From contig JBQTIG010000011.1 in NCBI GenBank assembly GCA_052388375.1, positions 92,080 through 156,079 on the forward strand: DNA of 64,000 bases, given 5' to 3'. Origin of the DNA: Planctomycetaceae bacterium. GTDB taxonomy: Bacteria > Planctomycetota > PLA2. Numbering within the stretch: the stretch's first letter is position 1; each line of letters opens with the position of its first letter. The notes beneath the pieces were generated by a model that saw only the letters and a program-made list of their open reading frames with translations, was not told where the DNA came from and ran no database searches. Position numbers and translations under genes: made by a program. This document shows positions 12,901-44,383 of the stretch, piece after piece.

Positions 12901-13157
12901 CCGGCCTCCCTTGCAGGTGCTTCCGCGCTCGCAGAAACGGCCTACAAAAGAGAAGAAGTGGGCGTCGACCCACTTCCTGTCCGCACGACGCGGGCGCGAG
13001 CTAGGAAGCACTCTCCAAACCTATGAACCTATGCGCAATCGCATGGAAGTCAAGGGAGGGGGGCGGGGGCAGGCCCGCGGGGGGCGCGGCTCCCCTCCGC
13101 CTGGGGCGCGCGCGGCTTTCCGGGGACCGCCCTCTTCGTCCGCGTAGAATCGGGCCC

Positions 13158-20536: not shown

Positions 20537-20583
20537 CGTAGCCGCGCCGCTCCGCGTACAATGCTCCGCCGGGAAACGAGCGA

Positions 20584-22251
20584 TTGGCCCTCATCCTGCC
20601 CTGCCCCTCCTGCGGCGCGCCCGCCGACGCTTCCGCACAACGACCCGGCGCGCGATTCCCCTGCGCCCATTGCGGCAAGGTGATCGCGGTGCCGGCGTCG
20701 GGACCGGCGGTGCGCGCGGGGAGGCGCCGCGCCCTCGCCGTCGTCGGCCTGCTGGTCGCCGCGGGGGGCCTCTACGCCCTCCTGCCGCGGGACCGCACTC
20801 CGGAGGCGCCGGCGCAGGATAGGGCCACGGCGACGCTGGATCGCGAGACATGGTGGACTCGCGCCACGGCGCGCCCCTCCGGCGCGGAGCGTCTCCTGGC
20901 CCCGCGCGAATTGCGCGCGGTGCTCGCGGAAGGCGAGCGGCGGGGATTCTCGGCCGACGCGACCTGGTGGGCGGAACGGCGGCGATGGGCCTTCGAGCGC
21001 ATCCTCTCGATGGACCCCCTCGACACGGAGGCGAACACCGCCGCGGGCCGGCGCGTGCTCCAGACCTACCCCGGGTTTCGAGAGCTCTGGGACCGGATGC
21101 TGGCGGCCCGCACGCTCCACGAGACGACCGAAACGCTGCTGGGCCTCTACGACGACCGCGTGCAGGCCGACGAGGCGATCTTCCTGGACGAGGAGGAGTG
21201 GGCGCGCACTTCGGCCCTTTTGAAGGACGCCGCGGAGCACCTCCGCCGCATGGGAGAGGATCCGGCCTACCGCGCCCTCCAGCGCGCGCTCCAGATGGTC
21301 CGGAGCGACGGCGCGCTGCAGGAGTACGCGTTCGTCCGGATGCAGGCGGGGCCCTTCCTGGTCTTCTACACGGCGCGCGATCTGCGGCGCATCCGGGGGG
21401 AGGGCGAAGAGGCGGAGAACGCGCGCATCGCCGGGCGCGCCGCGATCTACGAGAAAGCCCTCGCCGCCCGCGCCGCGATCTACACCGGGCTCCTCGACGA
21501 CCTCAGGGCGCTCTACCCCGAGATTCTCGCCGCCCACCCGATCGCGCCCGGCGATCTCTTCTTCCAGTGGATCTTCGCCGACGAGGCGACCTATCTCGAC
21601 TTCTGCGAGCGCACCGGAAGCCGCGGCCAGGTGCGCGCCTACCGCGCGGGCCATCTGCGCAAGCGGGACGGCTGGGCGTTCCTGTTCGAGCCGGCGGAGG
21701 AACGCCCCGAGGCGAGCGACCCCGTGGGGGAGAGCGCCGCCTACCTGGGCTGCCTGCAACTGCTCACGCACTGGTCCATCGACCCCGCCGTTCCCGGCAC
21801 GCGGCACATCGACAGCTCCCGCGCGCTCTGGATCCAGGAAGGGTGGGCGTCGCTCCTGGCGTCGCGTCGCGTCGCGAAGAGCGAGCTGGGCGCCTCGCTC
21901 CGGCAGGCCAACCTCGCCGGACGGGCGCTGCCCTCGATCCAGCGCATCGTCGATCGCGAGAGCTGGCACGAGCTGGAGCAGTACCGGGAGCCGGTGGAGG
22001 AGACCGCCGAGGGGCCGCCCCCGCTCACGGTGCGGGAGTCCTTCGCGGATCTGGCCTGGGTGCTGACCGAGGTCCTCCACGGCGGGAACTACCGGCCGGG
22101 ATTCTCCCGATTCCTCCTCGCCCAGATCGAGGGGAGGCGGGGCGGCGAGGACTCCTTCGAGGCCTGCTTCCTCGCCGGGGGTCGCGGCGGATGGGCCGTC
22201 CTCGACGGCTTGGTGCACCAACGCGTGGCAAGCCTCGGTCCGGGCAGGTAG
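20584..22251 (+). CDS. Zinc-ribbon/TM/DUF1570-like domain protein, HExxH motif degenerate (putative pseudoprotease)
   Basis: N-terminal CPSCG..CAHCG zinc ribbon, one TM, C-terminal domain paralogous to next gene but LQLLTH replaces HESTH; only TTG start available after upstream stop. Confidence 0.6.
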   Translation: MALILPCPSCGAPADASAQRPGARFPCAHCGKVIAVPASGPAVRAGRRRALAVVGLLVAAGGLYALLPRDRTPEAPAQDRATATLDRETWWTRATARPSGAERLLAPRELRAVLAEGERRGFSADATWWAERRRWAFERILSMDPLDTEANTAAGRRVLQTYPGFRELWDRMLAARTLHETTETLLGLYDDRVQADEAIFLDEEEWARTSALLKDAAEHLRRMGEDPAYRALQRALQMVRSDGALQEYAFVRMQAGPFLVFYTARDLRRIRGEGEEAENARIAGRAAIYEKALAARAAIYTGLLDDLRALYPEILAAHPIAPGDLFFQWIFADEATYLDFCERTGSRGQVRAYRAGHLRKRDGWAFLFEPAEERPEASDPVGESAAYLGCLQLLTHWSIDPAVPGTRHIDSSRALWIQEGWASLLASRRVAKSELGASLRQANLAGRALPSIQRIVDRESWHELEQYREPVEETAEGPPPLTVRESFADLAWVLTEVLHGGNYRPGFSRFLLAQIEGRRGGEDSFEACFLAGGRGGWAVLDGLVHQRVASLGPGR

Positions 22252-22262
22252 AAAGGAACACC

Positions 22263-24278
22263 ATGAGAACCCAGAAGTGCGGCGGTTGCGGATCGGTGCT
22301 CGACGTTGCGCAGCTGCAGAAGGGGTCCAAGTTCGCCTGTTCCGCCTGCGGCACGGTGCTCACCGTGGGGGAGGCGACGGCGGCGAAGCGTTCCCTCAAG
22401 GACGCGGGACCGGCCTTCAAGCCGAAGGCAGCCCAGGAGAAGGAGGCCCCCGCCACCGTGCGCCGCAGTCGTCGCGCCCCCGGGGACGCGCCCGATGCCG
22501 TGGAGGCGCAGCGCAGCCGCATGCCGCTCTTCGTGGCGGGAGGAGCGATCGTCGTGGCGGTGGTGGTCGCGATCGCGCTCGGCTCCGGCAAGGGAGGGGG
22601 CGGCGGCGGGACGATGACAGGGGGAGGGGGCGGGGGCGGCGCGGCCCGCGAGCCCGCGCCGGTGAAGGTGCCGCCGGACCAGTGGTGGCTCCAAGCGACG
22701 ACCAATCCCGACCGCTCGCCCAAGACCCTCGACGCCGCGGCGATCGAGACGATCCTCGCCGAGGCGCAGCGGAGCGGGTTCACCGCAGACCCTGGCTTCT
22801 GGAAGCCCAAGGCGGAGAAGCTCTACGGCGATCTCCTCAAGCTCAAGCCGTCCCATCGCGCGGCCAACGAGTTCTTCGGGCGTAAGTCCTTGCGGGACTA
22901 TCCCGGCTTCGCCGACGTCTGGCGCTCCATGGAGGAGAGCTTCCGCGAGCTTCCGCGCGAGCGGCGCGACCTCCTCACGGCCTACGAGGAGCGGGTGCAG
23001 CAGGGGGATCCGCTCTGGATGAGCCCCGAGGAGTACGAAGCGGAGAAGGCTCGCTTGGACGACTTCGTCGCGTGGAAGAAGCAGTGCGATGCCGACCCGA
23101 TCTTCAAGGAGATCCAGGCGGGCATCGTGCGCGTCCTCGAGACCGATCCGGTCCTCTCGCACTACGGCGCCACCTACATCGACGCCCACCCCTTCATTCT
23201 CTTCGTCGGCTCGCGCGAGCTCTTTCCCCAGCCGGTCCAGGGGGAGACCGCCGAGGAGGCGAAGGCGCGCATCGCCAAGAAGACCGAGGAGCTGCAGCCG
23301 CGCCTCCAGCGGCTGCGCATGCTCTACCGGGCCTACGTCGCGAACTTCGAGGAGCGCTACCGCAAGCCGCTGGGCCTCCCGGAGTTCAAGCCCACCGACC
23401 TGCTCTTCCAGTGGGTCTTCGAGGATCGCGAGGGGTTCGATCGCTACAACAAGGACGCCACAGGGCACGAGATCGCCGGCGGCATCCTGGGCTACTTCTC
23501 GCCGAAGAACCGCTGGGTCTTCCTCTACGAGCGCGAGGACGCGGAGGCGGAGGGGATCAGCAACGAGAACGTCATGGCCCACGAGTCCACCCACCAGATC
23601 CAGTGGTTCTTCTCCAAGGATCCCGAGAAGCGGGGCGTGAACTACAGCGAGGAGTTCGAGTCGGCCTGGTTCGGGGAGGGCTGGGCCGAGTACGTGGGCG
23701 GATCCTGCCGCACCCATCCCGAGACCGGGGAGACCCAGTTCTCCTGGTATGCCCTCGGGCGCGCGGACTGGCTCCGCTTCATGAAGAAGAACGGCATCCC
23801 GCTCATCCCCATCCGCTACCTGGCGGAGCGCGGCAACTACTCCGAGTTCAACCTGTGGATCGCGAACTTCTGGCTGGAGGAGGCGCGCAGCAAGGCCTCC
23901 GAGGCGGCCGAGAAGTTCCTCAACCAGCCGGTCTACTTCAGCTCGCTCTACGCGCAGGCCTGGTACTTCGTCTACTTCCTCAATGAGTTCGAGAACGGAA
24001 AGTACCGGAAGCCCTTCCTGGGGTTCGTCCTCACGGCCATGCGCGGCCGCCAGAAGCCGGCGGCCTACCGTAGCGATCCCGCCGTGGCGGAGCGCTGGCC
24101 CAGCGTCATCAGCGCCTTCGAGGAGATCTTCGCGATGAAGACCCCGGAGGACTGGGAGCGTCTCCAGCGGGAACATGACCAGTTCCTCGAGAAGGTCCTG
24201 CAGGATGCGCCGGTGCCCAAGAAGCGTGAGGGGGCGAAGAGCGAGGAGGGCGCGAAGAGCGACGAGGGGGGGGAGTAG
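22263..24278 (+). CDS. Zinc-ribbon/TM/DUF1570-like putative zinc metalloprotease (HExxH)
   Basis: MRTQKCGGCG..CSACG zinc ribbon, TM, poly-Gly linker, HESTHQ metal-binding motif plus downstream EGWAEY; strong RBS AAAGGAA; internal Met of ORF 20850..24278. Confidence 0.68.
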   Translation: MRTQKCGGCGSVLDVAQLQKGSKFACSACGTVLTVGEATAAKRSLKDAGPAFKPKAAQEKEAPATVRRSRRAPGDAPDAVEAQRSRMPLFVAGGAIVVAVVVAIALGSGKGGGGGGTMTGGGGGGGAAREPAPVKVPPDQWWLQATTNPDRSPKTLDAAAIETILAEAQRSGFTADPGFWKPKAEKLYGDLLKLKPSHRAANEFFGRKSLRDYPGFADVWRSMEESFRELPRERRDLLTAYEERVQQGDPLWMSPEEYEAEKARLDDFVAWKKQCDADPIFKEIQAGIVRVLETDPVLSHYGATYIDAHPFILFVGSRELFPQPVQGETAEEAKARIAKKTEELQPRLQRLRMLYRAYVANFEERYRKPLGLPEFKPTDLLFQWVFEDREGFDRYNKDATGHEIAGGILGYFSPKNRWVFLYEREDAEAEGISNENVMAHESTHQIQWFFSKDPEKRGVNYSEEFESAWFGEGWAEYVGGSCRTHPETGETQFSWYALGRADWLRFMKKNGIPLIPIRYLAERGNYSEFNLWIANFWLEEARSKASEAAEKFLNQPVYFSSLYAQAWYFVYFLNEFENGKYRKPFLGFVLTAMRGRQKPAAYRSDPAVAERWPSVISAFEEIFAMKTPEDWERLQREHDQFLEKVLQDAPVPKKREGAKSEEGAKSDEGGE

Positions 24279-24280
24279 CG

Positions 24281-24730
24281 CTACTTACCCTGGGGCTGCC
24301 AGAGTTCGTAGCCGGGGAGGCGCTCCCGCATCCGGGCCAGCGCCTCCTCGTCCCCAGCCTCGCTGAAGGCGCGGAACGCTTCGCGCCAGCGGCCCGCTTT
24401 CTCCGCGGCGCAACCGGCCTTCTTCCACTCCGCAGCGGCGACCGCGCGACCCTCCCTGCGGAGCGCGAGCAGGAGGATCACCTGCCCCTCCTCCGCCGCT
24501 CGCTGCGAGAGCCGAGCGATTCCGGGTTCGTCGTGAGCGAGCAGTAAGAGATCGAGCGCCTCGGTCAGGCGCCCCGCCCGTTCGAGGCTCGCAGCGGCGG
24601 CGATGCGCTCGGCGGAAGTCGTCTTGAGCGAGTACTTGATCTCCCGGAGCTCGAGCGTGTTGGGGAGTCCATCAGCCATGGGGGAACTATACCGCGACGC
24701 TCCCTCGGGCCTCGTGTCGTCGTAACTCAT
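24281..24730 (-). CDS. Hypothetical helical protein
   Basis: ORF 149 aa (or 132 aa from MADGLPN); no recognisable family; convergent with previous gene. Confidence 0.4.
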   Translation of the reverse strand: MSYDDTRPEGASRYSSPMADGLPNTLELREIKYSLKTTSAERIAAAASLERAGRLTEALDLLLLAHDEPGIARLSQRAAEEGQVILLLALRREGRAVAAAEWKKAGCAAEKAGRWREAFRAFSEAGDEEALARMRERLPGYELWQPQGK

Positions 24731-25637: not shown

Positions 25638-26762
25638 ATGCCCCCCGAAAAGGCGAGCCTCGTTCCCGGGGAGATCCAGCTTCACTTCTGTCAGCGCTGC
25701 GGGATCTCCATCCCGGTCACGGAGGTGGCGAGCGGGAGAGCCACGGCTGCGCCCGGCGGGTACGTGTGCAGCACCTGCACGAGCGCGGAGGCGCCGGCCA
25801 CGGGCGCTCCCGTCTCCGCGAGGCAGGGGCTGGGAGCCGTCGCCGTCGCGGCGTTGCTTTTCCTGGTCGGGGCGACCGCCTTTCTCCTCTATCGCGAGAC
25901 GACACGCACCGCTCCCGTCCTGAAGCTGCCGCCCACGGCGGCACCCGAGGATGTGGCGGGGGTGAGCCGCCGCCTGGAAGAGGCGCAGCAGCGCTCGCGC
26001 GAGGGCTTCGTCGCGCTTTCCGAGGCGCTGCAGGCGCAACAGCAGCGGATCGATGCGCTTCGGCGAGACCAGGCGGAGGCGGAGCAGGCGGCCCTGGACC
26101 GCGAGAAGGCCTCCCTCGAGCGCGATCGCAATCTCCTCGCGGCCATCGACGCGCTGGCCAGCCGCACCGGCATCAGCCGAGGCGACCTGACGGAGATCCT
26201 GGCGCGCGAGATGGAGAAGTTCCGCAGGGAGGCCGCCGCGCAGAAGACGACGCAGCCCACCCCGACGGAGACGCCGAAACAGCCCGATCCGCCGCCGGTC
26301 GATCCGCGGCAAGCGGAGCAGGATCGCCTGGTCCGGGAATACGTCTTGAAGCTGCAGTCCAAGGAGGCCACCCCGCGGGAGCGCTACACCGCGGCCGTCC
26401 GGCTGGGCGAGCTCATGGACCCCTCCGCCATCACTCCCCTCATCCAGGTGCTGGAGAGCGACGAGGACGATCTCGTCTTGCGCGGCGCGGCCTGGTCCCT
26501 CGGGAAGTTCGGGAAGGTCGCGGTGCGGGCGATTCCCGCCCTCATCAAGCAGGTCGGCGAGAAGCGTGAATACGTCGGCTACATGTGCGACCGCGCCCTG
26601 AGCGACATCTCCCTCGACGCGCTCGGCGCCAGGATCACCTTCGGCTACGACCCGACGATGACTTCCAAGCAGCGGCGCGCTATCGAGAAGCAGTGGGAGG
26701 AGTGGTGGACGAAGAACCGCCCTCTTCTCGAACGGGAGGGCGGTTCGGCGGGAGCCGGCTGA
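25638..26762 (+). CDS. Zinc-ribbon/TM/coiled-coil/HEAT (PBS-lyase-like) repeat protein
   Basis: N-terminal CQRCG..CSTC, one TM helix, long coiled coil (QQRIDALRRDQAEAEQ), C-terminal HEAT-like repeats (DEDDLVLRGAAWSLGKFG). Confidence 0.6.
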   Translation: MPPEKASLVPGEIQLHFCQRCGISIPVTEVASGRATAAPGGYVCSTCTSAEAPATGAPVSARQGLGAVAVAALLFLVGATAFLLYRETTRTAPVLKLPPTAAPEDVAGVSRRLEEAQQRSREGFVALSEALQAQQQRIDALRRDQAEAEQAALDREKASLERDRNLLAAIDALASRTGISRGDLTEILAREMEKFRREAAAQKTTQPTPTETPKQPDPPPVDPRQAEQDRLVREYVLKLQSKEATPRERYTAAVRLGELMDPSAITPLIQVLESDEDDLVLRGAAWSLGKFGKVAVRAIPALIKQVGEKREYVGYMCDRALSDISLDALGARITFGYDPTMTSKQRRAIEKQWEEWWTKNRPLLEREGGSAGAG

Positions 26763-27243
26763 TCCGACGCAGCGCCGCCGCGAACGGATCGCTGCCCCCG
26801 CGAGCCTCCAGCTCCTCCAGCGCCACGCCGCCCGCCCCGAACGTCTCGAGGAACGCCAACAGCTCCAGGGCTCCCTGGATGCCCCGGACCCGGGAACGCT
26901 GCGCCTCGGCGTGCAGGAGGGCATAGGCGCGCGCCGAGGGCAGCACCTCGCGCAGGTCGAAACGGAGGGACTTCCCCTCGGGCAGCGCGGCAAGCGCGCG
27001 GCGCAGGATGAGGACGCTGTCGGCGGCCTCCCCTCCCTCCGCCGCCACCGCCACTCCGAGGAAGGCGAGCGCCACGGGCTGCCTCGGGGCGCGGAGCACG
27101 CACTCGGAGAGCGCGGCCCGCGCGCGAGCGTAGAGCCCCACGCGGAGGTAGCCGACTCCCGCCTCGAAGTAGGCGGGGGCGTCGAAGTCCGCGGAGGCGC
27201 TGGACGCCAGGGCGAGGAGGAGGGCAGGGGTGGGCCGCCTCAT
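26680..27243 (-). CDS. Secreted TPR-like protein, last gene of the spt/bCerS operon
   Basis: 187 aa from MRRPTPALLLALASSASA signal peptide; 4-nt ATGA overlap with upstream gene; 3' end overlaps convergent gene by about 80 nt (true stop uncertain). Confidence 0.45.
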   Translation of the reverse strand: MRRPTPALLLALASSASADFDAPAYFEAGVGYLRVGLYARARAALSECVLRAPRQPVALAFLGVAVAAEGGEAADSVLILRRALAALPEGKSLRFDLREVLPSARAYALLHAEAQRSRVRGIQGALELLAFLETFGAGGVALEELEARGGSDPFAAALRRISRLPPNRPPVREEGGSSSTTPPTASR

Positions 27244-28340
27244 CCCGAACTTGGACGCTCTCGCCCCCTCCCCCCTTCCGCAAGATCCTTCTCGAAGAGC
27301 CGCCAGCGCTTGTAGGGATGGAGCCCGTAGTGCCCCAGGCCGTTGAGGAGCGCGGCGTTGTGCTCGAGCACCCAGGAGGCCTCGCACCAGTCGTACCGCT
27401 CGCGGATCCTGCCGAAGCTGTCGGCGAGGAGGAGCGCCTCGAGCCCGCGCATGCGGCGGTTCGGGACGACGCCGAGAGCCACGCAGCGCGCCCGCCGCAC
27501 CGTCTTGCGCGCCCGGAGGAAGTGGAGCCATCCCAGGGGGAACATGCGGCCTCGGCAGCGACGCGAGACCACGTTCAAGTCGGGCAGCGAGAGGAGGAAC
27601 CCGACCGCCTGGCCGTCGAGCTCCGCGACCCGCACGAGATCGGGGTCGAGGATCGCCTTCAGGTCCTTGGCCTTGAAGGCGAACTCCTCCGGCCCTACGG
27701 GGACGTGCCCCCAGTTGGAGTCCCAGGCGGCGTTGTAGACGCGGCGGATGCGCTCGACCTCGTCCAGAAACCGCCGCGCATCGATGGGCCGTACGGTGAC
27801 GTTCTTGCGCCGCGCCAATTCGGCGAACGCGCGGGTGCGGTCGAACCCCTTGTCCACGAGACGCCCGGCCACCCCGAGGAGGTCCTGGGCGCCCACGTAG
27901 CCGGCCCGCTCCCACATCGCGACCTGGTAGGCGGGGTTCCAGGTGGTATCCACGACGGGAGGCGTGTCGAAGCCTTCCACGAGAAGGCCCGCGGTGTCGT
28001 GGATGGAGTAGTTGAGAGGACCGCGCGCCAACCTGAGGCCGCGCGACGCCAGCCAGGCCTCGGCGGCGGCGAAGAGCGAGGAGGCCGTCTCCTCGTCGTC
28101 CGCGCAGTCGAAGAAGCCGAGGACGCCGCAGCCCGGCACCCGCGCCTCCAGATCGCGATCGTGGCAGGCGCCGATCCGGCCCACCGGCCGCCCTCCGCGC
28201 CGAGCCAACCACTCCGCCCCCTCCGCATGACGCCAGAAGGGGTTGCGCCGGCGGTCGAGCACGGCGTCCACCGATGCCCGGATGGGGGGGATGAAGGCGG
28301 GATGGTCGCCGTGCAGAAGTTCGGGAAGGTCGCGGAACAT
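27240..28340 (-). CDS. GNAT/FemAB-like acyltransferase, candidate bacterial ceramide synthase (bCerS)
   Basis: 366 aa from MFRDLPELLHG; Acetyltransf_6/BioF2-like C-terminal block; immediately downstream of spt as in Caulobacter-type sphingolipid loci. Confidence 0.6.
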   Translation of the reverse strand: MFRDLPELLHGDHPAFIPPIRASVDAVLDRRRNPFWRHAEGAEWLARRGGRPVGRIGACHDRDLEARVPGCGVLGFFDCADDEETASSLFAAAEAWLASRGLRLARGPLNYSIHDTAGLLVEGFDTPPVVDTTWNPAYQVAMWERAGYVGAQDLLGVAGRLVDKGFDRTRAFAELARRKNVTVRPIDARRFLDEVERIRRVYNAAWDSNWGHVPVGPEEFAFKAKDLKAILDPDLVRVAELDGQAVGFLLSLPDLNVVSRRCRGRMFPLGWLHFLRARKTVRRARCVALGVVPNRRMRGLEALLLADSFGRIRERYDWCEASWVLEHNAALLNGLGHYGLHPYKRWRLFEKDLAEGGRGRERPSSG

Positions 28341-28381
28341 CCGGCGGGCCCGCCGGCCGCCGACCCGCTCCAGGACCAGCG

Positions 28382-29563
28382 TCACTGGAGGATCTGGAGC
28401 TCGCGTCCAACGCGCGCGAACACTTCGAGGCAGCGTGTCAGCTGTTCGCGGGTGTGGGTCGCCATGTAGGAGGTGCGCAGGAGGGATTGGCCCTGCGGGA
28501 CCGCGGGCGGGACCACCGCGTTCGTGAAGACGCCCTGGTCGAAGAGCGTGCGCCATGCCATGAAGGTCGCGGCGTCGTCGCCGATGCGGAGGGGGATGAT
28601 GGCGCTTTCGCAGCCGTTGGTGTCGAAGCCGAGCTCCGCGAACCCCCTCTTCATGAACTCCACGTTGGAGCGCAACCGTTCGCGATGCTCGGGCTCGCGC
28701 TCCATGAGGTCCAGGGCGGCCAGGGCGGCCGCCGCGCTGCTCGGCGTGATGGCGGCGCTGAAGATGAGCGCCCGGGCGGTGTGCTTGACGTAGTGGATCA
28801 CATCCTCGTCGCCCACCACGAAGCCCCCCAGGCTGGCGAAGGACTTCGAGAAGGTGCCGGTGATTAGATCCACGTCGAGGCCGAAGTGTTCGCAGGTCCC
28901 GCGCCCGCCCCGGCCCAGCACGCCGACGCCGTGAGCGTCGTCCACCAGGACCTTGGCGCCGTGCTTCTTGGCCACGGCGCAGAGGCGCGGGAGGTTGACG
29001 AGGTCGCCGAGCATGGAAAAGACCCCGTCGGTCACGACCAGCTTGCCCGCCTCCGGATCGCACTGCCCCAGGAGGCGATCCAGATCGTCCATGTCGTTGT
29101 GCCGGTACTTCTTGATGGTCCCGAAGCTGAGCCGCGCGCCGTCGAAGATGGAGGCGTGGTTCTCCCGATCGCAGAAGACGAAGTCGTTCTTCCCGGCCAG
29201 GACGCTCAGGACCCCCAGATTGGTCTGGAATCCGGTGCTGAAGGTGAGGGCCGCTTCCTTGCCGAAGAAGGCCGCGAGGCGCCGTTCGAGCTCGACGTGC
29301 AGCTCCAGCGTCCCGTTCAGGAAGCGCGACCCGCTGCACCCGGTTCCGAACTCGTCGATCGCCGTTCGGGCGGCCTGCTGGACGCGGGGGTGGTGCGTCA
29401 GGCCCAGGTAGTTGTTGGACCCGATCATGACCATCCGCCGCCCCTCGATCGTCACTTCGGTGGCGTGGTGCGAGAGGGAGATGGGGTGGAAGTAGGGATA
29501 GAGATTCGCCGCCTGGATCTCCTTGGGGCGGGTGTATCGCTGGCACTTGTCGAAGAGGCTCAC
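28382..29563 (-). CDS. spt: Serine palmitoyltransferase / alpha-oxoamine synthase family PLP enzyme
   Basis: 393 aa from GTG (VSLFDKCQRY...); AOS motifs GSNNYLGL, GTFSKS (PLP lysine), conserved His; genomic context with bCerS and CerR-like genes. Confidence 0.78.
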   Translation of the reverse strand: MSLFDKCQRYTRPKEIQAANLYPYFHPISLSHHATEVTIEGRRMVMIGSNNYLGLTHHPRVQQAARTAIDEFGTGCSGSRFLNGTLELHVELERRLAAFFGKEAALTFSTGFQTNLGVLSVLAGKNDFVFCDRENHASIFDGARLSFGTIKKYRHNDMDDLDRLLGQCDPEAGKLVVTDGVFSMLGDLVNLPRLCAVAKKHGAKVLVDDAHGVGVLGRGGRGTCEHFGLDVDLITGTFSKSFASLGGFVVGDEDVIHYVKHTARALIFSAAITPSSAAAALAALDLMEREPEHRERLRSNVEFMKRGFAELGFDTNGCESAIIPLRIGDDAATFMAWRTLFDQGVFTNAVVPPAVPQGQSLLRTSYMATHTREQLTRCLEVFARVGRELQILQ

Positions 29564-29751
29564 GTGGGATTCTCGAACCGGGCGGGCGATTTTCCCCTCG
29601 TCCCTGCGGTACCGCCGGGGAGACCGTGCCGACCCATAAGCTACCAACCCTTCAAGCCGCGAAAGGGCCGCGGTATTCCTATCTCGCCCCCTAGGGGGTG
29701 TCAATAGAATAGTACCCCTCGGCGACCCCTCGAACGGGCGCAACACCTTAT

Positions 29752-30792
29752 ATGCAAAGCAGAAAGGTCAATCGCGTGCTCGTGACGGGGGGCCACGGCT
29801 TCCTGGGCAGCCACCTCGTCGACCTGCTCCTGCGGCGCGGCTGCGAGGTGCGCTGCCTCTTGCGGCCCGGGCGGGGTGAGGCTGGGTTCCGTGGCCTGCC
29901 GGTGGAAGTCGTGCGGGGTGATCTGCGGCGGGCCGAGGGGCTCGAAGCTGCGGTGGAGGGGGTGGAGACGGTCTACCACGTCGCCGGCCTCATCGCCGCG
30001 CGCAGACCGGCCGACTTCTATGAGGTGAACGAGGGAGGCACGCGCAGACTGGCCGCGGCTGTGGCGCGTGCGAACCCGGGCTGCCGCCGATTCGTTCTCG
30101 TCTCGAGCCAGACCGCGGGGGGCCCCAGCCGGGACGGGACGCCGGTGCGCGAAGAGGATCCTGCGCGCCCGCTCAGCCACTACGGCCGGAGCAAGCTGGC
30201 CGCCGAGCGAGCCCTCCCCGGCGCCCTGGGCGGGGTTCCCCATGCCGTCCTCCGCGCCCCTGCGATCTACGGCCCGCGGGACGAGGCGATCTTCCCCTTC
30301 TTCCAGATGGCACGCTCCGGGCTCCGCCCCGGGCTGGAGGGACGCGGGCGGCGGTTCAACCTCCTCCACGCGGAGGATGTCGCCGAGGCGATCCTCCTCG
30401 CAGGGACGCGCGGGGAGGCAAGAAACCGGCTCTACTATCTGGCCGAGGGACCTGGGTGCACCCACGGGGAGGTGGGGGAGGCGCTCTCCGCGGCGTACGG
30501 GAGACGACTGCGCAGGGTTCCCCTCCCCGACCTCCTCCTCGACCTCGCGGGCGTGCTCACCGACGAGCTGGCGGGGCTCCTGGGGCGGACGCCGGTATTC
30601 GGGCGGGACAAGGCGAAGGATCTCAAGGCGCGCTTTTGGGTCTGTTCCGCGCTGCGTGCCGGTCGCGAGCTCGGGTGGACCCCCCGGATCACGCTCCAGG
30701 AGGGCATGGCGGCCACGGCGCGCTGGTACGAGGAGCAGGGGTGGATTCGCGCGAGGCCAGGGGGGCGGGGCCCGGGGGCGGGCGCGCTATGA
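29752..30792 (+). CDS. NAD-dependent epimerase/dehydratase (extended SDR), candidate ceramide/3-ketosphinganine reductase (CerR-like)
   Basis: VLVTGGHGFLGSHLV Rossmann, YGRSK catalytic motif; divergent from spt. Confidence 0.62.
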   Translation: MQSRKVNRVLVTGGHGFLGSHLVDLLLRRGCEVRCLLRPGRGEAGFRGLPVEVVRGDLRRAEGLEAAVEGVETVYHVAGLIAARRPADFYEVNEGGTRRLAAAVARANPGCRRFVLVSSQTAGGPSRDGTPVREEDPARPLSHYGRSKLAAERALPGALGGVPHAVLRAPAIYGPRDEAIFPFFQMARSGLRPGLEGRGRRFNLLHAEDVAEAILLAGTRGEARNRLYYLAEGPGCTHGEVGEALSAAYGRRLRRVPLPDLLLDLAGVLTDELAGLLGRTPVFGRDKAKDLKARFWVCSALRAGRELGWTPRITLQEGMAATARWYEEQGWIRARPGGRGPGAGAL

Positions 30793-31214
30793 TGCGCGCT
30801 GCCATGGGACCCGGCCCCCTCCTCCTCGCGGCGCTGCTTCTCGCCGGCTGCCGCGGTGTCGAGACCTCCTATCGCTACCCCGACGACCTCTGGCACCCCA
30901 ACTACGTGAAGCGCACCAAGGCGGCGCGGGAGTTCGCGGCGCGCTCCGATGCCACCCAGCTCCCCCGCGCCTTCGATCTCCTCCTCGACCGCGAAGACCA
31001 CATCCGGGACATGGCCTACCTTACCCTCCGCACGCTGTCCGCCGGCGGAAGGGACTTCGGCTACAAGCCCTGGATGCCGGAGCCGGTGCGGGAGGGGATC
31101 GTGGCGCGCTGGCGCGCCTGGTGGGAGGCGGGGCAGCCGGGCGAGGCCGGCGCGCCGGCCGCGCCTCCCGCCGCCGACGCCCCGGCGGATGGCGGAGGGG
31201 CGGCGCGTGGCTGA
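30789..31214 (+). CDS. Small lipoprotein of unknown function
   Basis: MMRAAMGPGPLLLAALLLAGC lipobox; ATGA overlap with preceding gene. Confidence 0.5.
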   Translation: MMRAAMGPGPLLLAALLLAGCRGVETSYRYPDDLWHPNYVKRTKAAREFAARSDATQLPRAFDLLLDREDHIRDMAYLTLRTLSAGGRDFGYKPWMPEPVREGIVARWRAWWEAGQPGEAGAPAAPPAADAPADGGGAARG

Positions 31215-31650
31215 AGGCTGGCGCGGCATCCGGGTCACGATCCCCTCGGAGATCCGTTTCCTGGGCCCCATCCGGATCATGATCGACGAGGCGTGCGGCA
31301 TCGCGGGGCTCTCCGAGGAGGATCGCGCGGAGGTGCAGCTCGCGGTGCAGGAGGGCTGCGCGAACGTGATCCGCCACTGCTACAAGTGCGAGGCCGGCAA
31401 GCGGATCGATCTGCGGGTGAGCTTCCTCGAGGACTCGCTGGAGATCCGCGTGGACGACTACGGGACCTTCGTGGATCCTGCGCAGATCCGTGGCCGGGAG
31501 CTGGAAGACGTGCGGCCCGGCGGTCTCGGCGTGCACCTGATGCGCAAGTCCATGGATGAGGTCCGGTACGACAAGAACGCCTGGGGCGGGACCACGCTGA
31601 CCCTGGTGAAGCGGTTTGGCAAAGACGGCGGCGCGAAGGAGAACGAATGA
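31189..31650 (+). CDS. Anti-sigma regulatory factor, GHKL Ser/Thr kinase (RsbW/SpoIIAB-like)
   Basis: 153 aa; N-box QEGCANVIRHC, G1 VDDYG, G2 GGLGVHLM. Confidence 0.75.
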   Translation: MAEGRRVAEGWRGIRVTIPSEIRFLGPIRIMIDEACGIAGLSEEDRAEVQLAVQEGCANVIRHCYKCEAGKRIDLRVSFLEDSLEIRVDDYGTFVDPAQIRGRELEDVRPGGLGVHLMRKSMDEVRYDKNAWGGTTLTLVKRFGKDGGAKENE

Positions 31651-31976
31651 AAGTCAATCGGGAGACCCGGAATACGGACGTGCTCGTGAGCGTGCAGGGC
31701 AGCGTGGACATTTACTCCTCGCCGGAGCTGCGCGGAGAACTGAAAGTGGCCCTCGAGCAGCGCGCGCCGAGGATCGTGATCGACCTGGAGAAGGTCACGT
31801 TCGTCGACTCGTCGGGGCTCGCAACGCTCATCGAGGCGCTCCAGCGGGTGCACGAGTACCAGGGCAAGCTGGTCCTCTGCGGCCTCAAGGCCACGGTGCT
31901 CAGCGTCTTCCAGCTGACCAACCTGGACAACCTCTTCGAAATCCGCCCCAACGTGAAGGCTGCCCTGGAAGGCTGA
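31647..31976 (+). CDS. STAS-domain anti-sigma factor antagonist (RsbV/SpoIIAA-like) with phosphorylatable DSSGL motif
   Basis: 109 aa; FVDSSGLATL; ATGA overlap with kinase gene; 6 nt upstream of mlaE. Confidence 0.8.
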   Translation: MKVNRETRNTDVLVSVQGSVDIYSSPELRGELKVALEQRAPRIVIDLEKVTFVDSSGLATLIEALQRVHEYQGKLVLCGLKATVLSVFQLTNLDNLFEIRPNVKAALEG

Positions 31977-31982: not shown

Positions 31983-32774
31983 GTGGCCGGCGAGTCGCTC
32001 GCGACGCTGGGCAAGAAGGGCCTCGAGCTGGCGCGCTTCCTGAGCGCCTGCGGAAGGCTCCTCTGGGACTTCGGCTACTGGTTCCTGGTCGCCCCTTTCC
32101 GCGGGTTCCGGCTCCGAGGCGCGGAAACCGCCCGCCAGATGGTGCGCGTCGGCGTCCACTCCGTGCCGATCGTCTTCCTGGTCAATTTCTTCGTCGGCGT
32201 CACGCTCGCCATCACCGTCGCCGACATCCTCGACGAGTTCGGCGTGACCGAGTACACCAGCGCGGCGATGGGCGTGGGGTTCTGGCGCGAGCTGGCGCCG
32301 CTCCTCACCGGGATCATCATGGCCGGCTTCGTGGGCGCCTCCCTCGCCGCCGAGATCGGGACGATGAAGGTGGGCGAGGAGCTCATGGCGCTGGAGGGGA
32401 TGGCGCTCAACCCGGTCCGCGTGCTCGGCGTCCCGCGCCTGGTCGCGGTGCTCGTCATGGTCCCCATGGTCACGCTCCTCGGCACCCTCTTCGGCATCTA
32501 CGGCGGCTTCGTCGTCTGCACCGGCCTCCTGGATCTGACGCCGACGCTCTTCTACGACCGCATGATCGATGCGCTCACGTTCAAGGACATCTGGGTCGGA
32601 GGCTTGAAGAGCGTCCTCTTCGGCTGCATCGTGGGCCTCGTCGGGCTGGCGCAGGGGTTCCAGGTGCGCGGCGGCGCCGAGGGCGTGGGCCGCGCCACCA
32701 CGAACGCCGTGGTCTACTCCATCATTCTCATCATCCTGGGCGACTGCCTGCTCACGGTGGCGTTCTACTTCTGA
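31983..32774 (+). CDS. mlaE: MlaE-family ABC transporter permease
   Basis: 263 aa, MlaE/Ttg2B conserved TM core. Confidence 0.85.
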   Translation: MAGESLATLGKKGLELARFLSACGRLLWDFGYWFLVAPFRGFRLRGAETARQMVRVGVHSVPIVFLVNFFVGVTLAITVADILDEFGVTEYTSAAMGVGFWRELAPLLTGIIMAGFVGASLAAEIGTMKVGEELMALEGMALNPVRVLGVPRLVAVLVMVPMVTLLGTLFGIYGGFVVCTGLLDLTPTLFYDRMIDALTFKDIWVGGLKSVLFGCIVGLVGLAQGFQVRGGAEGVGRATTNAVVYSIILIILGDCLLTVAFYF

Positions 32775-32778: not shown

Positions 32779-33615
32779 ATGACCGAACCTCGCGCTTCCG
32801 AACCCTCCCCCGGCGATGAACCGCCGGTCGTCATCCGCTGCCGCGACGTGGAGAAGAGCTACGACGGACGCCCCATCCTGCAGGGGATCAACCTGGAGGT
32901 GCGCAAGGGGGAGACCCTCGTGATCATGGGGGGATCGGGCCATGGCAAGAGCACGCTCCTCCGGCTCCTCATCGCCGCGGAGCGGACGGACGGGGGACGG
33001 ATCGAGCTGTTCGGCCAGGACATCAGCAACCTGAGCGAGGAGGAGATGTACCCGCTCAAGCGCCGGTACGGGATCTTGTTCCAGTCCGGGGCGCTCTTCG
33101 GCTCCATGACGGTGGGCGAGAACATCTCCCTGCCCATCCGCGAGCACACCAAGCTCGACGAGAAGATCATCCGCATCATCGTCAAGCTGAAACTCGACAT
33201 GGTCGGCCTGCGGGACTTCGAACACCTCAACCCCTCCCAGCTCTCCGGCGGCATGCGCAAGCGCGTGGGGTTGGCGCGCGCCATCGCCCTCGATCCCGAG
33301 GTGATCTTCTACGACGAGCCCGGGGCGGGCCTCGATCCGGTCATGCTCGCGGTCATCGACGAATTGATCACGGGCCTCGGGAAGAAGCTGGGCGTCGCGT
33401 CGATCGTCGTGACGCACGAGATGAACTCCGCCTTCCGGATCGCGGACCGGATGGTGCTCCTCTACCGCGGAAAGCTGATCGCGGAGGGGACCCCGGACGA
33501 GATCCGGAATTCCCCCGATCCGATCGTGCAGCAATTCATCCAGGGCAAGGCCGAAGGGCCGATCCCCCTGCGTCTGGCGAGCCGGGATCTCGCCGAGGAT
33601 CTCTTGGGAGGCTGA
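32779..33615 (+). CDS. mlaF: MlaF-family ABC transporter ATP-binding protein
   Basis: Walker A GGSGHGKST, signature LSGGMRKR, Walker B IFYDEPGAGLD. Confidence 0.9.
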   Translation: MTEPRASEPSPGDEPPVVIRCRDVEKSYDGRPILQGINLEVRKGETLVIMGGSGHGKSTLLRLLIAAERTDGGRIELFGQDISNLSEEEMYPLKRRYGILFQSGALFGSMTVGENISLPIREHTKLDEKIIRIIVKLKLDMVGLRDFEHLNPSQLSGGMRKRVGLARAIALDPEVIFYDEPGAGLDPVMLAVIDELITGLGKKLGVASIVVTHEMNSAFRIADRMVLLYRGKLIAEGTPDEIRNSPDPIVQQFIQGKAEGPIPLRLASRDLAEDLLGG

Positions 33616-33618: not shown

Positions 33619-34866
33619 ATGGCAAGCAAGGCAATGGAAGTGCGTGCGGGGATCGTGGTCCTCCTGGGCCTGGGCATCCTGGGACTCGGGCTCTTCCTCG
33701 TGAGCGGCGGCACCGACCAGCTGCGCGACAAGGGCTACTACACGATCCTCTTCGAGGACGCGGGGGGGATCGGCGGGGGGGACGCGGTCTATCTCGCGGG
33801 CCAGCGGATCGGGAGCGTCGAGCGCGTCGAGGCGCGCAAGGTGGGGGACACGAGCAAGGTGGCCGTTACGATCAAGGTCTACGCCACCGCCGAGATCCAC
33901 CAGAACGCGACGTTCCGCATCTCCCAGACCATCACCGGGATCACGACGATGCGCATTCTCTACGGCAGCGGGGCCCTGGCCGACGCGGAGACCCTGTTGT
34001 CGGGCACGAAGCTGGCCACCTTCGAGGAAGCGATCGACGGCGCGACGCTGCTGATCAACGACGCGCGGGCGATGGTGGGGGACCTCCAGCGCGCCGCCAA
34101 GGGCATCGACTCCATGGTGGCCGACCTCCAGGAGCGGAAGCTGCCCGAGAAGGTGGAGGCGATCGTCAAGGAGGTCGCGGGCGCCATCGAGGACGCTCGA
34201 CGCATCGTGCGCAACGCCGAAGCGCCCGTGGACGAGGTCCTCGCCCGGCTCCGCTCCGCGGCGCGGGCGCTCGACGAGACGATCGTGCAGATCAAGGCCG
34301 ACTACGGCGAGAAGATGGAGCCGCGCGTCACGGCCGCCCTGGAGAGCCTGCGGAAGGCGGCAGCGGACGTGGAGGGACTGCTCTCCACCAACCGGCCGCG
34401 CATCGACGCCCTGGTGCAGAACCTCAAGGACGCCAGTGAGCGCGTCTCGCCGGTGCTCCAGCGCATCGAGGGGCTGGCGCGCGGCGCGGACGAGACCGTC
34501 ATCGAGGTGCGCCCGCGGCTCGTCGCCACCCTCGAAAACGCCAAGCGGGCGATGAAGAACTTCGAAGCGGTGACCCAGGACCTCAAAACCGCGCCCTGGA
34601 AGCTCGTGAACAAGCCGACCGACGAGGAGGCGCGGGAGGTCCACCTCTACAACGCCGCGAGCCTCTATACGGCGGCGGTGGGCGACGTCGCGGCCGGTAT
34701 CGAGGAATTGGGTACGTTGAAGGACCTCGGGCTGCTCGCCTCGCCGGAGGGAGCCGCGCGCGTGGTGGAGGCGCTGGCCAGGCTCAACCGGGCGATCGAG
34801 GAGCACGATCGGCTGCAGCAAGCGCTGGTCGATCTGATCGTCGCGGGGGCGAAGGCGAAAAACTAG
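33619..34866 (+). CDS. mlaD: MlaD/MCE domain protein with long C-terminal helical extension
   Basis: N-terminal TM plus MCE domain; 415 aa. Confidence 0.8.
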   Translation: MASKAMEVRAGIVVLLGLGILGLGLFLVSGGTDQLRDKGYYTILFEDAGGIGGGDAVYLAGQRIGSVERVEARKVGDTSKVAVTIKVYATAEIHQNATFRISQTITGITTMRILYGSGALADAETLLSGTKLATFEEAIDGATLLINDARAMVGDLQRAAKGIDSMVADLQERKLPEKVEAIVKEVAGAIEDARRIVRNAEAPVDEVLARLRSAARALDETIVQIKADYGEKMEPRVTAALESLRKAAADVEGLLSTNRPRIDALVQNLKDASERVSPVLQRIEGLARGADETVIEVRPRLVATLENAKRAMKNFEAVTQDLKTAPWKLVNKPTDEEAREVHLYNAASLYTAAVGDVAAGIEELGTLKDLGLLASPEGAARVVEALARLNRAIEEHDRLQQALVDLIVAGAKAKN

Positions 34867-34888: not shown

Positions 34889-35818
34889 ATGGCCAAAGTG
34901 AGCGTGATCGGCGCGGGGCACGTCGGCGAGTCGGTGGGATTCCAGATCGCGGAGCGCAGCCTCGCGGAAGTCGTCCTCGTGGATGTCGTGGAGGGCATGC
35001 CCCAGGGCAAGGCGCTCGACATGGCGCAGGCGGGAGCGCTCTTCGACTACGACCTGCCGCTCCAGGGGTCCAACGACTTCGCGTCGATCCGCGGCAGCGA
35101 TGTCGTCGTCGTGACCTCCGGCATCGCCCGCAAGCCCGGCATGGACCGCATGGACCTGCTCAAGACCAACGCGGGCATCGTGAAGGATGTCTCGGCGGCG
35201 ATCCGGAAGCACGCGCCCGACTCCATCGTGATCATGGTGACGAACCCCCTCGACGTGATGGCCTTCGTCGCGTTCCGCGTGACCGGCTTTCCGCGCGAGC
35301 GGGTGGTGGGCATGGCCGGCGTCCTGGACGCGGCGCGCTACCGCCGCTTCGTCGCCTGGGAACTGAAGGTCTCCGTGCGCGACGTGGCCGCCATGGTGCT
35401 GGGGGGCCACGGCGACCAGATGGTGCCCCTCCCGCGCTTCACCACGGTCAACGGCGTTCCGCTGCCGGAGCTGCTCCCGGCCGCCCGCATCGCCGCGCTC
35501 GTGGAGCGGACGCGCCACGGCGGCGCGGAGATCGTGAAGCTGCTCAAGACGGGCAGCGCCTACTACGCGCCGGCCGCCTCCTGCACCGTGATGGTCGAGG
35601 CGATCCTGCGCGACTCGAACCACCTCCTCCCGGCGGCCGCGTTCCTCGAGGGGGAGTACGGGCATCGGGGGATCCACCTCGGCGTGCCCGTGCGGATGGG
35701 TCGCCGCGGCGTGAGCCAGATCGTGGAGGTCCCGCTCGACGGGGCGGAACGAAAGGCGCTCGATGCGAGCGCCGAGGCGGTCCGCAAGGGCGTGGCCGAA
35801 GTGCAGCCCTTCCTCTAG
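34889..35818 (+). CDS. mdh: Malate dehydrogenase (LDH-like type)
   Basis: VSVIGAGHVG Rossmann, catalytic His, MVTNPLD; 309 aa. Confidence 0.9.
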   Translation: MAKVSVIGAGHVGESVGFQIAERSLAEVVLVDVVEGMPQGKALDMAQAGALFDYDLPLQGSNDFASIRGSDVVVVTSGIARKPGMDRMDLLKTNAGIVKDVSAAIRKHAPDSIVIMVTNPLDVMAFVAFRVTGFPRERVVGMAGVLDAARYRRFVAWELKVSVRDVAAMVLGGHGDQMVPLPRFTTVNGVPLPELLPAARIAALVERTRHGGAEIVKLLKTGSAYYAPAASCTVMVEAILRDSNHLLPAAAFLEGEYGHRGIHLGVPVRMGRRGVSQIVEVPLDGAERKALDASAEAVRKGVAEVQPFL

Positions 35819-42204: not shown

Positions 42205-43208
42205 GCGTCCTTCAGGAGTTCGTGCAGGGCGGCCGCCTGGACCAGCACCCGGGAACGGGACTGCTCGGCGACCCAGGAATGGGGCCCGTCGATGACCTCG
42301 TCCGCCACGACCACGTTGCGGCGCACCGGCAGGCAGTGCATGAAGGCGCCCGGATCGCCGAGCGCCTGCCGCCGCCGATCCACGATCCAGCTCCGGAGGG
42401 GGGCGCGCAGCGCCGCGTCCCCCTCGGGATTCGCATAGGCGGAGAGCGCGCCCCACGCCTTGGCGTAGACGACCCGCGCGCCGGAGAGCCCCTCGTCCAT
42501 GTCGCCATGGAGCGTGAGGCGGCCGCCCGCGGACTCCCGCGCGTGCTCCATCACCTCCGCGTCCAACTCGAATCCGGGAGGATGCACGAGGCGGACGCGG
42601 TAGCCCGCGCGGCAGAAAGCGAGAAGCGCCGAATTGGGCACCGCGGTCGGAAGCGCCCGCGGATGCCAGGCCCAGGTGATCGCGATGGCATGCTCCGCGG
42701 GATCCCCTTCCAGGTGGTTGCGCAGCACGAGCAGGTCGGCGAGGGACTGCATCGGGTGAAACAGCACCGACTCGAGGTTGATCACCGGGACCTCCGAGCA
42801 GCGCGCGACGGCTTGGAGCACCGGATCCTGGCGCTGCTCCTCCCAGGGGCGCGCAAGGTCGGCGAAGCAGCGCACGCCGATGCAGTCCACCACGCCGCTC
42901 AGGAACTTCCCCACGGCGTCGCGCACATGCTCGGCCTTGTCGCCGTCCATGACCGCCCCGTCCCGCGTCTCCAGCGCCCAGACGCTCCTCCCGACGTCGT
43001 GGCAGCTGCAGAGCGCGCCCAGGGAGTAGCAGGCGACCTCCAGGGCGGTGCGCGTGCGCAGGGAGGGGTTGAAGAAGAGACCGCAGACCACCCGACCGAC
43101 GAGCGCGGGCGGGATCTCCGACTCGCGGAAACGGTCGGCAAGATCGAGGAGCGTGGTGACCTCCCCGTCCGACAGGTCCTCGAGGCTCAGGATCGAGCGG
43201 CCCCTCAC
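42201..43208 (-). CDS. argF: Ornithine (or N-acyl-ornithine) carbamoyltransferase
   Basis: SLRTR carbamoyl-phosphate motif, HCLP motif; GTG start giving 4-nt overlap with argD. Confidence 0.78.
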   Translation of the reverse strand: MRGRSILSLEDLSDGEVTTLLDLADRFRESEIPPALVGRVVCGLFFNPSLRTRTALEVACYSLGALCSCHDVGRSVWALETRDGAVMDGDKAEHVRDAVGKFLSGVVDCIGVRCFADLARPWEEQRQDPVLQAVARCSEVPVINLESVLFHPMQSLADLLVLRNHLEGDPAEHAIAITWAWHPRALPTAVPNSALLAFCRAGYRVRLVHPPGFELDAEVMEHARESAGGRLTLHGDMDEGLSGARVVYAKAWGALSAYANPEGDAALRAPLRSWIVDRRRQALGDPGAFMHCLPVRRNVVVADEVIDGPHSWVAEQSRSRVLVQAAALHELLKDA

Positions 43209-44383
43209 GCGAGCACGCTCCGCAGGGCATCGAGCGCCTCGTCGACTTCGCCTGGCGTCATCGTGAGCGGCGGAAAGATGCGGATCACCCGGGGGTCGCC
43301 TGGGCACTCGCCCACGAGGACCCGTCGTTCGGTGCGCAGGGCCGCCCGGGCGCGCGCGGCGTCGCCGCGCAGCCGCAACCCGAGCAGCGCTCCGTGACCC
43401 CGCACCTCCTCCAGGGCGCGCAGCCCGGCGAGCCCCCGCCGGAACGCTTCCTCCATCGCCAACGCACGAGACGGTCCGTCGATCTCCTCGAGGAGGGCGA
43501 GCGTGGCGTCGATGGCCGCGCAGGCGAGCGGGCCGCCGCCGAAGGTCGTTCCGAGGTCCCCGGGCTTCGTCGCGGCGGCGATCTCCCCGCGCGCGAGGAG
43601 CACCGAGGCGGGGAACCCGCCCGCCACCGCCTTGGCCATCGTGATGAGATCGGGGGCGATGCCCCAGCGCTCCCCGGCGAACCAGAAGCCCGTGCGGGCG
43701 GGCGCCGTCTGGATCTCGTCGAAGACGAGGAGCGCGCCGGTGGCGTCGCAGCGGCGACGCAGGGCCACGGCGAACGCCGGATCGAGGACACGCACTCCGC
43801 CCATGGACTGGATGGGCTCCACGAGGACGGCGGCGCAGCCGGTGTCGATGAGGCCCTCGAGCCCTGCGATGTCGTTGAACTCCCCGAACACGAACGCGCC
43901 CGCCGGGTCGAGGAGCGGCGCGGCGGCGTCGCGGTAGTGGCCGAGGGCGGTCGCCCCCAGGGCGCCGAGCGTGCGGCCGTGGAACCCGCCCTGGAACGCG
44001 GCGACGCGGATGCGCCCGGTGGCCTGGCGCGCCATGCGGAGAGCCGCTTCGTTCGCCTCCGCCCCCGAATTGACGAAGAAGGCGCGCGCGTCGGGCCAGG
44101 GGGCGAGGCGGCAGAGCCGTTCCGCGGCGCGCGCGCGCACCGGGAGGTGGACGAGGCTGGAGTAGAAGAGGAGATCCCGCGCCTGGTTGGCGATGGCGTC
44201 GACGACGCGCGCGGGGCTGTGGCCCAGGAGGCAGACCGCGTGGCCCCCGTAGAGATCGAGGTAGGCGGTGCCGTCCAGGTCATGGACGCGCGACCCCTCG
44301 CCGCGCGCCAGGACCAGGTCGGCGCGGGTGTAGGCGTTCGCCTCGCAGCGCGCCTGCGCCTCGATGATGGCGGCCCGGTTCAC
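43205..44383 (-). CDS. argD: Acetylornithine aminotransferase
   Basis: 392 aa class III PLP aminotransferase (LVFDEIQT, PLP Lys in MAKAVAGG). Confidence 0.85.
   Translation of the reverse strand: MNRAAIIEAQARCEANAYTRADLVLARGEGSRVHDLDGTAYLDLYGGHAVCLLGHSPARVVDAIANQARDLLFYSSLVHLPVRARAAERLCRLAPWPDARAFFVNSGAEANEAALRMARQATGRIRVAAFQGGFHGRTLGALGATALGHYRDAAAPLLDPAGAFVFGEFNDIAGLEGLIDTGCAAVLVEPIQSMGGVRVLDPAFAVALRRRCDATGALLVFDEIQTAPARTGFWFAGERWGIAPDLITMAKAVAGGFPASVLLARGEIAAATKPGDLGTTFGGGPLACAAIDATLALLEEIDGPSRALAMEEAFRRGLAGLRALEEVRGHGALLGLRLRGDAARARAALRTERRVLVGECPGDPRVIRIFPPLTMTPGEVDEALDALRSVLA

Follow-up and report, generated by a model that had tools for sequence, protein, structure and literature searches.

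Results

Three adjacent genes form a putative ceramide locus

We analysed a 64,000-nucleotide stretch of DNA (the window; assembly GCA_052388375.1, contig JBQTIG010000011.1, forward-strand positions 92,080 to 156,079) from a Planctomycetaceae bacterium, and focus here on three neighbouring genes that together resemble a bacterial ceramide biosynthesis locus. On the reverse strand, spt (28382-29563, 393 aa, GTG start) encodes an alpha-oxoamine synthase (AOS) and is followed directly by bcerS (27240-28385, 381 aa, GTG start), which encodes a tandem-GNAT N-acyltransferase of the CC_1154/YghO family. Across a divergent intergenic region of 188 bp, read directly from the sequence (29564-29751), cerR (29752-30792, forward strand, 346 aa) encodes an extended short-chain dehydrogenase/reductase (SDR) of the NAD-dependent epimerase/dehydratase family, a candidate ceramide/3-keto reductase. 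A sequence-only reading of the window had proposed just this set, an AOS gene with an acyltransferase gene directly downstream and a divergent SDR gene; all three are present, and they and their neighbours lie at, or very near, the positions that it gave. The myxobacterial origin that it implied does not hold, as the source is an NCBI metagenome-assembled genome (MAG) labelled Planctomycetaceae.

Because the window is ~70% G+C, raw lists of its open reading frames (ORFs) are crowded with spurious frames, and we used codon-position G+C profiles to settle on one frame per stretch. The G+C content at third codon positions (GC3) is 0.85-0.95 in the proposed frames, which supports coding by the genes of the locus, and the Spt, GNAT and SDR calls are exactly identical to deposited NCBI proteins (MGQ0612455.1 for the spt product; 'hypothetical protein ACT4PV_01715' for that of bcerS). 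The 41-nt gap previously placed between the AOS and acyltransferase genes arose because an ATG at 28340 was chosen as the acyltransferase start. The 15 residues upstream of this ATG align with an N-terminal block conserved in 32 homologues, the NCBI call is likewise 381 aa long, and an identical 4-nt spt/bcerS overlap is seen in relatives. We therefore place the start at the GTG at 28385, which overlaps the spt stop codon by 4 nt (GTGA). ATGA overlaps between the acyltransferase stop and a small ORF at 26680-27243, and between the SDR stop and a small lipobox-bearing ORF at 30789-31214, were both read in the sequence as described earlier. Scans of the locus for promoters, terminators, inverted repeats and Rfam families returned nothing above chance, and no sigma-70-like consensus was found in the spt/cerR intergenic region, which presumably holds the promoters of both divergent operons.

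The AOS groups with serine palmitoyltransferases

The spt product matches Pfam Aminotran_1_2 (E 1.3e-54). Its leading NCBIfam match is the Bacteroidota-type serine palmitoyltransferase (SPT) model SerpalmtaseCFB (NF047600) at 534.5 bits, 146 bits above bioF, with the beta-proteobacterial SPT model at 407.2 bits, bioF at 388.6 and Kbl at 372.5; three SPT models rank first, second and sixth, and the bioF and Kbl scores both fall under their own cut-offs. The PDB gives the same picture. Both Sphingobacterium multivorum SPT sequences (3a2b, 8guh) lead at 441.6 bits with an alignment running end to end, followed by the Sphingomonas SPTs at ~316 bits, Kbl at no more than 274 and BioF at no more than 221.8, and the characterised SPTs outrank every Kbl, BioF, ALAS and CqsA entry. 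These rankings, together with 52% identity to the S. multivorum enzyme (3a2b) over 385 columns, bear out the description of the protein as an AOS with Spt-like features; its identity to proteobacterial SPTs is 38-42%.

The pyridoxal phosphate (PLP) residues H136, D208, H211, T237, S239, K240 and R363 are all present and align with H159, D231, H234, T262, S264, K265 and R390 of the S. paucimobilis-type enzyme. The lysine motif reads TFSKS in the window AOS, in all 65 AOS proteins linked to such clusters, in both proteobacterial SPTs and indeed in all SPTs aligned; the same position reads TFGKG in BioF and TLGKA in Kbl. To place the protein, we aligned 71 sequences, comprising the window AOS, 65 AOS from GNAT-containing loci, the S. 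multivorum, Sphingomonas and E. coli SPTs, and E. coli BioF and Kbl, and built a neighbour-joining (NJ) tree. Within the cluster-linked clade, the window AOS falls beside its relatives from planctomycetes. The node uniting it with the S. multivorum SPT leaves out BioF and Kbl in 99/100 bootstraps and the proteobacterial SPTs in 84/100, while the window AOS and the Sphingomonas SPT together exclude Kbl and BioF in 91/100, so that the phylogeny sides with Spt and away from the biotin and Kbl enzymes. No bioA, bioD, bioB or tdh gene occurs among the genes of the 64-kb window. The only class-III aminotransferase in the window (43205-44599) was considered as a possible BioA and rejected as ArgD-like. 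These data support an Spt-like enzyme of the Bacteroidota/delta-type subgroup with a predicted activity of serine condensation.

The acyltransferase belongs to the bCerS family

The 381-residue acyltransferase has no match in Pfam, NCBIfam or, by sequence search, the PDB. It has hundreds of homologues, many of them with weak GNAT domains (PF00583/PF13480), and its AlphaFold2 (AF2) model, with a predicted local distance difference test (pLDDT) score of 91.6, finds tandem GNATs as its top Foldseek matches (E ~1e-13, template modelling (TM) scores of 0.6-0.7), for example MshD and a clavulanate tandem GNAT. The bridge to characterised systems came from a tblastn search of a plasmid collection with the window GNAT. 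This aligned the protein over its full length with E. coli YghO (34% identity, 376 columns, E 9e-67) and with the acyltransferase of a Sphingomonas parapaucimobilis cluster, an N-acetyltransferase (32%, 393 columns, E 5e-55). CC_1154, yghO (ECD_02850) and Swit_3908 have been reported as counterpart acyl-CoA N-acyltransferase genes (PMC9386255); CC_1154 has been named bCerS, and the S. wittichii gene order agrees with that of the Sphingomonas locus (PMC11324152).

All 29 columns that are invariant in an alignment (A2) with YghO and the Sphingomonas protein are retained in the window protein. These columns, which are derived from the alignment and not from a published list of catalytic residues, include G69, G122-P123, R199, W221, N224-W225-G226, E335, W338 and N343, and hold an AWxxNWG motif. 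Full-length homology, the predicted tandem-GNAT fold and the retention of every conserved column all favour the bCerS candidate put forward by the sequence-only reading, and support a bCerS-family protein with predicted sphingoid-base N-acylation activity. A separate set of homologues with 35-38% identity (H3-H16) lies on Roseomonas megaplasmids, where the gene is called 'dATP pyrophosphohydrolase' or 'hypothetical' and adjoins a nucleotidyltransferase-family gene; this GNAT could be a bCerS under a wrong annotation, or else a paralogue that serves a different role.

The divergent SDR resembles CerR

The SDR matches Pfam Epimerase (E 2.6e-32) and retains both hallmark motifs, TGxxGxxG (TGGHGFLG at residues 12-19) and YxxxK (YGRSK at 144-148), the latter aligning with YGWSK and YANSK of CerR counterparts. 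Over its full length it shares 30% identity with the E. coli ECD_02852-type SDR (E 8e-36) and 34% with the SDR of the Sphingomonas cluster (E 1e-31), relative to both of which it carries a 14-residue insertion. CC_1164, ECD_02852 and Swit_3897 have been described as dehydrogenase genes for dihydroceramide synthesis (PMC9386255), and it is through these counterparts of CC_1164, together with the intact motifs, that the proposed CerR-like identity stands. The best NCBIfam match, HpnA, is weak and sub-threshold, as it is for known CerR counterparts. No N-terminal signal peptide is visible in the window SDR, nor in the proteobacterial counterparts examined. A CerR-like protein is supported, and ceramide reduction is its predicted function.

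The gene trio recurs across distant lineages

We then surveyed GTDB species representatives with the window GNAT, one genome per species, and retained 80 of at least 597 relatives. The 80 GNATs are 33-44% identical to the window protein and come from Gemmatimonadota, Acidobacteriota, Bacteroidota, Ignavibacteria, Zixibacteria, Calditrichaceae, Bdellovibrionota (including a Bacteriovorax MAG), Planctomycetota and Anaerolineae, among other groups, with no Proteobacteria among the matches listed. The window proteins served as tblastn queries to score neighbours up to 6 kb from the GNAT gene. A Spt-like gene lies within this distance in 60/80 loci and directly upstream, on the same strand, in 49; a SDR homologue is likewise found in 49/80, and both partners are near the GNAT gene in 48. 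The exact layout of the window, with a divergent SDR gene, spt and bcerS, is shared by 13 of the 80, and six of the loci that lack a Spt-like gene are truncated upstream. A scan of metagenomes with the SDR yielded one informative locus (L089). The three genes have been reported to cluster often, and Spt-like genes have been found in MAGs of Planctomycetota (PMC11334938); in that study the 'Spt-like' clade was recognised by co-localisation with bCerS and CerR homologues, both of which are adjacent to spt in the window. In a Gemmatimonas MAG (L004, 9651-11986), the order SDR-spt-bcerS is followed by genes for a GT4 glycosyltransferase and a LPG_synthase_TM protein, which are possible head-group enzymes for a glycosphingolipid.

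Accessory proteins and an Mla-type operon flank the trio

The gene coupled to bcerS by ATGA (26680-27243, reverse strand, 187 aa, high GC3 in its frame) encodes a small helical protein that is conserved only within a planctomycete clade, at 42-80% identity. It had been read as a secreted TPR protein. The coupling stands and secretion is plausible, in that a Sec-type signal peptide (MRRPTPALLLALASSASA/DF) can be proposed by inspection alone; the TPR label is not established, because the protein has no Pfam match, one homologue gives a 'faint' TPR_2 match, and the single-sequence AF2 model of all-helical hairpins is of low confidence (pLDDT 57). We regard the product as a probably secreted, lineage-specific accessory. 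Its gene overlaps a convergent HEAT-repeat gene (25638-26762, forward strand) by 83 nt at 26680-26762, and a similar convergent overlap of 107 nt was called in a related contig (L001, 9633-9739).

On the other side, cerR heads a tightly packed forward-strand operon whose genes overlap or are separated by gaps of at most 8 nt. It continues with a small lipoprotein (30789-31214, 141 aa, lipobox LLAGC) and, by Pfam, an RsbW-like HATPase_c_2 kinase (31207-31650), an RsbV/SpoIIAA-like STAS protein (31647-31976) bearing a VDSSGL motif, MlaE (31983-32774), an ABC ATPase (32779-33615) and an MlaD-like protein of 415 aa (33619-34866); a malate dehydrogenase gene (34889-35818, forward strand) follows. 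The ATGA coupling of the lipoprotein gene to cerR and the LAGC of its lipobox are both visible, as the sequence-only reading had it. Like the small helical protein, the lipoprotein has no Pfam or NCBIfam match and is conserved only among clade relatives (51-88% identity). A partner-switching pair within an Mla-type lipid transporter operon is unusual.

The Mla-type operon adjoins spt-bcerS in every clade relative examined, seven related contigs that include L001, L003, L089 and L096-L098, and the whole neighbourhood, with HU, HEAT-protein, mdh and arginine genes, is likewise syntenic in them. In L096 the lipoprotein is kept in place although cerR is absent, and the small protein and the Mla operon come directly after spt across a 273-bp gap. 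For the MlaD-like protein only 41 relatives are detectable; wherever their source is named, it is a MAG of Planctomycetota or Planctomycetes. In the 80 loci from other lineages, the trio has no Mla genes beside it.

Further genes in the window

Two large ORFs at 20542-24278 (forward strand, ~570 and ~666 aa) and a 149-aa ORF at 24281-24730 (reverse strand) show a strong coding signal and have no Pfam match; at the matching position, related contigs encode proteins of similar size that also lack a Pfam match. At 343-4521 (reverse strand) lies a class II (B12-dependent) ribonucleotide reductase of ~1390 aa with a C-terminal TSCPD domain and a gap inside its barrel-domain match, which could be an insertion such as an intein.

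Discussion

The trio very probably forms a bacterial locus of three genes for ceramide (dihydroceramide) biosynthesis, in the genome of an uncultured member of the Planctomycetaceae. Family membership and conserved context support the identities assigned to spt, bcerS and cerR, and the chemistry, substrates and step order proposed below follow the work on Caulobacter, where the Spt/bCerS/CerR trio makes ceramide (PMC11087976). By this analogy, Spt would form 3-ketodihydrosphingosine by condensing a long-chain acyl thioester with L-serine, the translationally coupled bCerS would N-acylate this intermediate, and CerR would reduce the 3-keto group to yield dihydroceramide. Acyl carrier protein (ACP), along with acyl-ACP synthetase, had been described as missing from the locus, and tblastn with the E. 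coli and Sphingomonas AcpR proteins and with AasR (E at most 1e-3) indeed finds no homologue of either in the 64-kb window. As no dedicated AcpR or AasR is encoded nearby, the acyl donor would most likely be acyl-CoA, as for this Spt subgroup, and we do not place the locus in the Rhodobacteria-type five-gene system; AcpR or AasR could be encoded elsewhere in the genome.

Several points weigh against this assignment. Ceramide production by the organism is predicted from homology, and the tie to the Caulobacter proteins is made by way of the E. coli counterparts published for them and of a Sphingomonas locus with shared synteny. The AOS score of 534.5 bits lies under the equivalog cut-off of NF047600 (640 bits), so 'Spt-like' is the safe label and serine is not guaranteed as the substrate over alanine or a different amino acid. 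Only 59/100 bootstraps recover all the cluster-linked AOS proteins as strictly monophyletic, in an NJ tree whose small outgroup sample consists of two enzymes and one paralogue. Nor is the reductase always linked: one clade relative (L096; JGI Ga0131077_10000046, 5741-7557) has spt (80% identical) and bcerS, and its 21 kb contain no SDR. How the last two steps are ordered is also disputed in the literature (PMC11087976).

In an unlikely alternative for the same locus, the order is eukaryote-like: the SDR would first reduce 3-ketosphinganine to sphinganine, which the GNAT would then N-acylate. The Geiger laboratory proposed such a reduction-first order for CC_1164 and CC_1154, and bCerS has been reported to acylate 3-oxo-sphinganine and sphinganine alike (PMC11324152). 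The window SDR, which has no visible signal peptide and begins its Rossmann motif at residue 12, would be compatible with a cytoplasmic reductase acting early. Against this, deletion of cerR in Caulobacter leads to the accumulation of oxidised ceramide, and CerR is periplasmic there, with a reported inner-membrane association, whereas Spt and bCerS are cytoplasmic (PMC11087976). The gene arrangement of the window also fits acylation first, as spt and bcerS are coupled by the GTGA overlap and cerR is placed apart, sharing an operon with envelope proteins.

The identity of the amino acid substrate and of the AOS itself can be weighed in the same way. A non-serine long-chain amino lipid, either a 1-deoxyceramide made from alanine or a capnine-type sulfonolipid made from cysteate, would use the same logic of AOS, SDR and N-acyltransferase. 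The sub-cut-off Spt score leaves room for such a product, 1-deoxyceramides have been reported as products of this enzyme set acting on alanine (PMC11334938), and cysteate-C-fatty acyltransferases are among the AOS relatives in the PDB results (28eh, 229.8 bits; 7u7h, 220.3 bits). We consider this improbable, since the AOS scores ~210 bits higher against a characterised SPT than against the cysteate enzymes and is placed within the SPT clade, and the partner GNAT and SDR match ceramide-pathway proteins specifically. That the AOS is instead a housekeeping BioF or Kbl, with an unrelated GNAT and SDR adjacent by chance, is effectively refuted. The substantial scores against the bioF (388.6 bits) and Kbl (372.5 bits) models reflect how closely knit the AOS family is, but neither reaches its own cut-off, and the SPT model scores far higher. 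Neither biotin-synthesis genes (bioA, bioD, bioB) nor tdh occur in the window, whose lone class-III aminotransferase is ArgD-like; the adjacency of Spt and GNAT genes recurs in 60/80 distant genomes, and the bootstrapped tree sets BioF and Kbl apart in 99 of 100 replicates.

Read as a ceramide locus, the window shares its three enzyme families, and its predicted dihydroceramide product, with Spt (CC_1162), bCerS (CC_1154) and CerR (CC_1164) of Caulobacter crescentus. It differs in that Caulobacter also has AcpR (CC_1163), AasR (CC_1165) and LptF2/G2/C2, none of which was found in the window, where the ORFs scanned gave no LptF/LptG-type Pfam match. The window Spt also belongs to another bacterial subgroup than that of Caulobacter, as reflected in its 38-42% identity to proteobacterial SPTs, and its bcerS is translationally coupled to spt, whereas cerS lies in a different operon in the bacteria examined previously (PMC11324152). 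The S. multivorum SPT (3a2b, 8guh) is the closest characterised enzyme to the window AOS and has the same active-site residues, but it comes from a different phylum, and the window AOS stays under the cut-off of the NCBIfam model built around its group.

Among loci of known context, that of E. coli BL21 type reads aasR, SDR, acpR, spt and divergent yghO; YghO is the best-scoring homologue of the window GNAT from a characterised context, the E. coli SDR and Spt are homologous to their window counterparts too, and E. coli Spt is active (PMC9386255). Unlike the window locus, the E. coli locus is ACP-dependent and transcribes yghO divergently from its own promoter. The Sphingomonas parapaucimobilis locus begins with SDR (cerR), acpR and spt and, after intervening genes, contains lptF, lptG, a desaturase gene and the acyltransferase gene. 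The sulfonolipid (capnine) pathway follows the same logic of AOS condensation, keto reduction and N-acylation, with cysteate-C-fatty acyltransferases at ~220-230 bits against the window AOS compared with 441.6 bits for SPT. The nearest precedent is the prediction, in a Black Sea study, of Spt-bCerS-CerR clusters in environmental MAGs of about 40 phyla, in which Planctomycetota were named as potential sphingolipid producers (PMC11334938). Those are the same cluster, supported by the same type of evidence, and our survey of 80 genomes reproduces the clustering; nothing fundamental differs in the window, except that its lineage has the cluster beside an Mla-type transporter operon.

This operon might be tied to the ceramide genes as a dedicated envelope transporter for ceramide or sphingolipid, comprising the lipoprotein and MlaEFD, switched by phosphorylation through the RsbW/RsbV-like pair with its DSSGL phosphoserine motif, and acting in a role like that of LptF2/G2/C2. 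We hold this to be a doubtful, speculative extension of the locus: the neighbourhood is syntenic and the linkage clade-restricted, so shared ancestry explains the proximity of the Mla genes and the trio as well as shared function does.

The locus is one more instance of a gene cluster that earlier work has described in many phyla, and the Mla-type export link is the sole lead it offers toward something new. If that operon is linked to the trio, it would represent a second candidate route by which bacteria export sphingolipids, which is as yet a poorly understood step. The more immediate consequence concerns annotation. In NCBIfam (June 2026) no model matches the window GNAT, nor E. coli YghO and the Sphingomonas bCerS counterpart, whose genes are those at 12001-13152 in locus L085 and 8929-10071 in locus L086. 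Because NCBIfam has no model for bCerS or CerR, public annotation of the locus is uninformative, with the acyltransferase left hypothetical and spt and the SDR gene given generic names, and such loci go unannotated across many phyla for the same reason. The present analysis adds a well-supported cluster for sphingolipid synthesis to a Planctomycetaceae genome, and suggests that the AWxxNWG tandem-GNAT family, where it adjoins a Spt-like gene, would serve as a reliable genomic marker of ceramide capacity.

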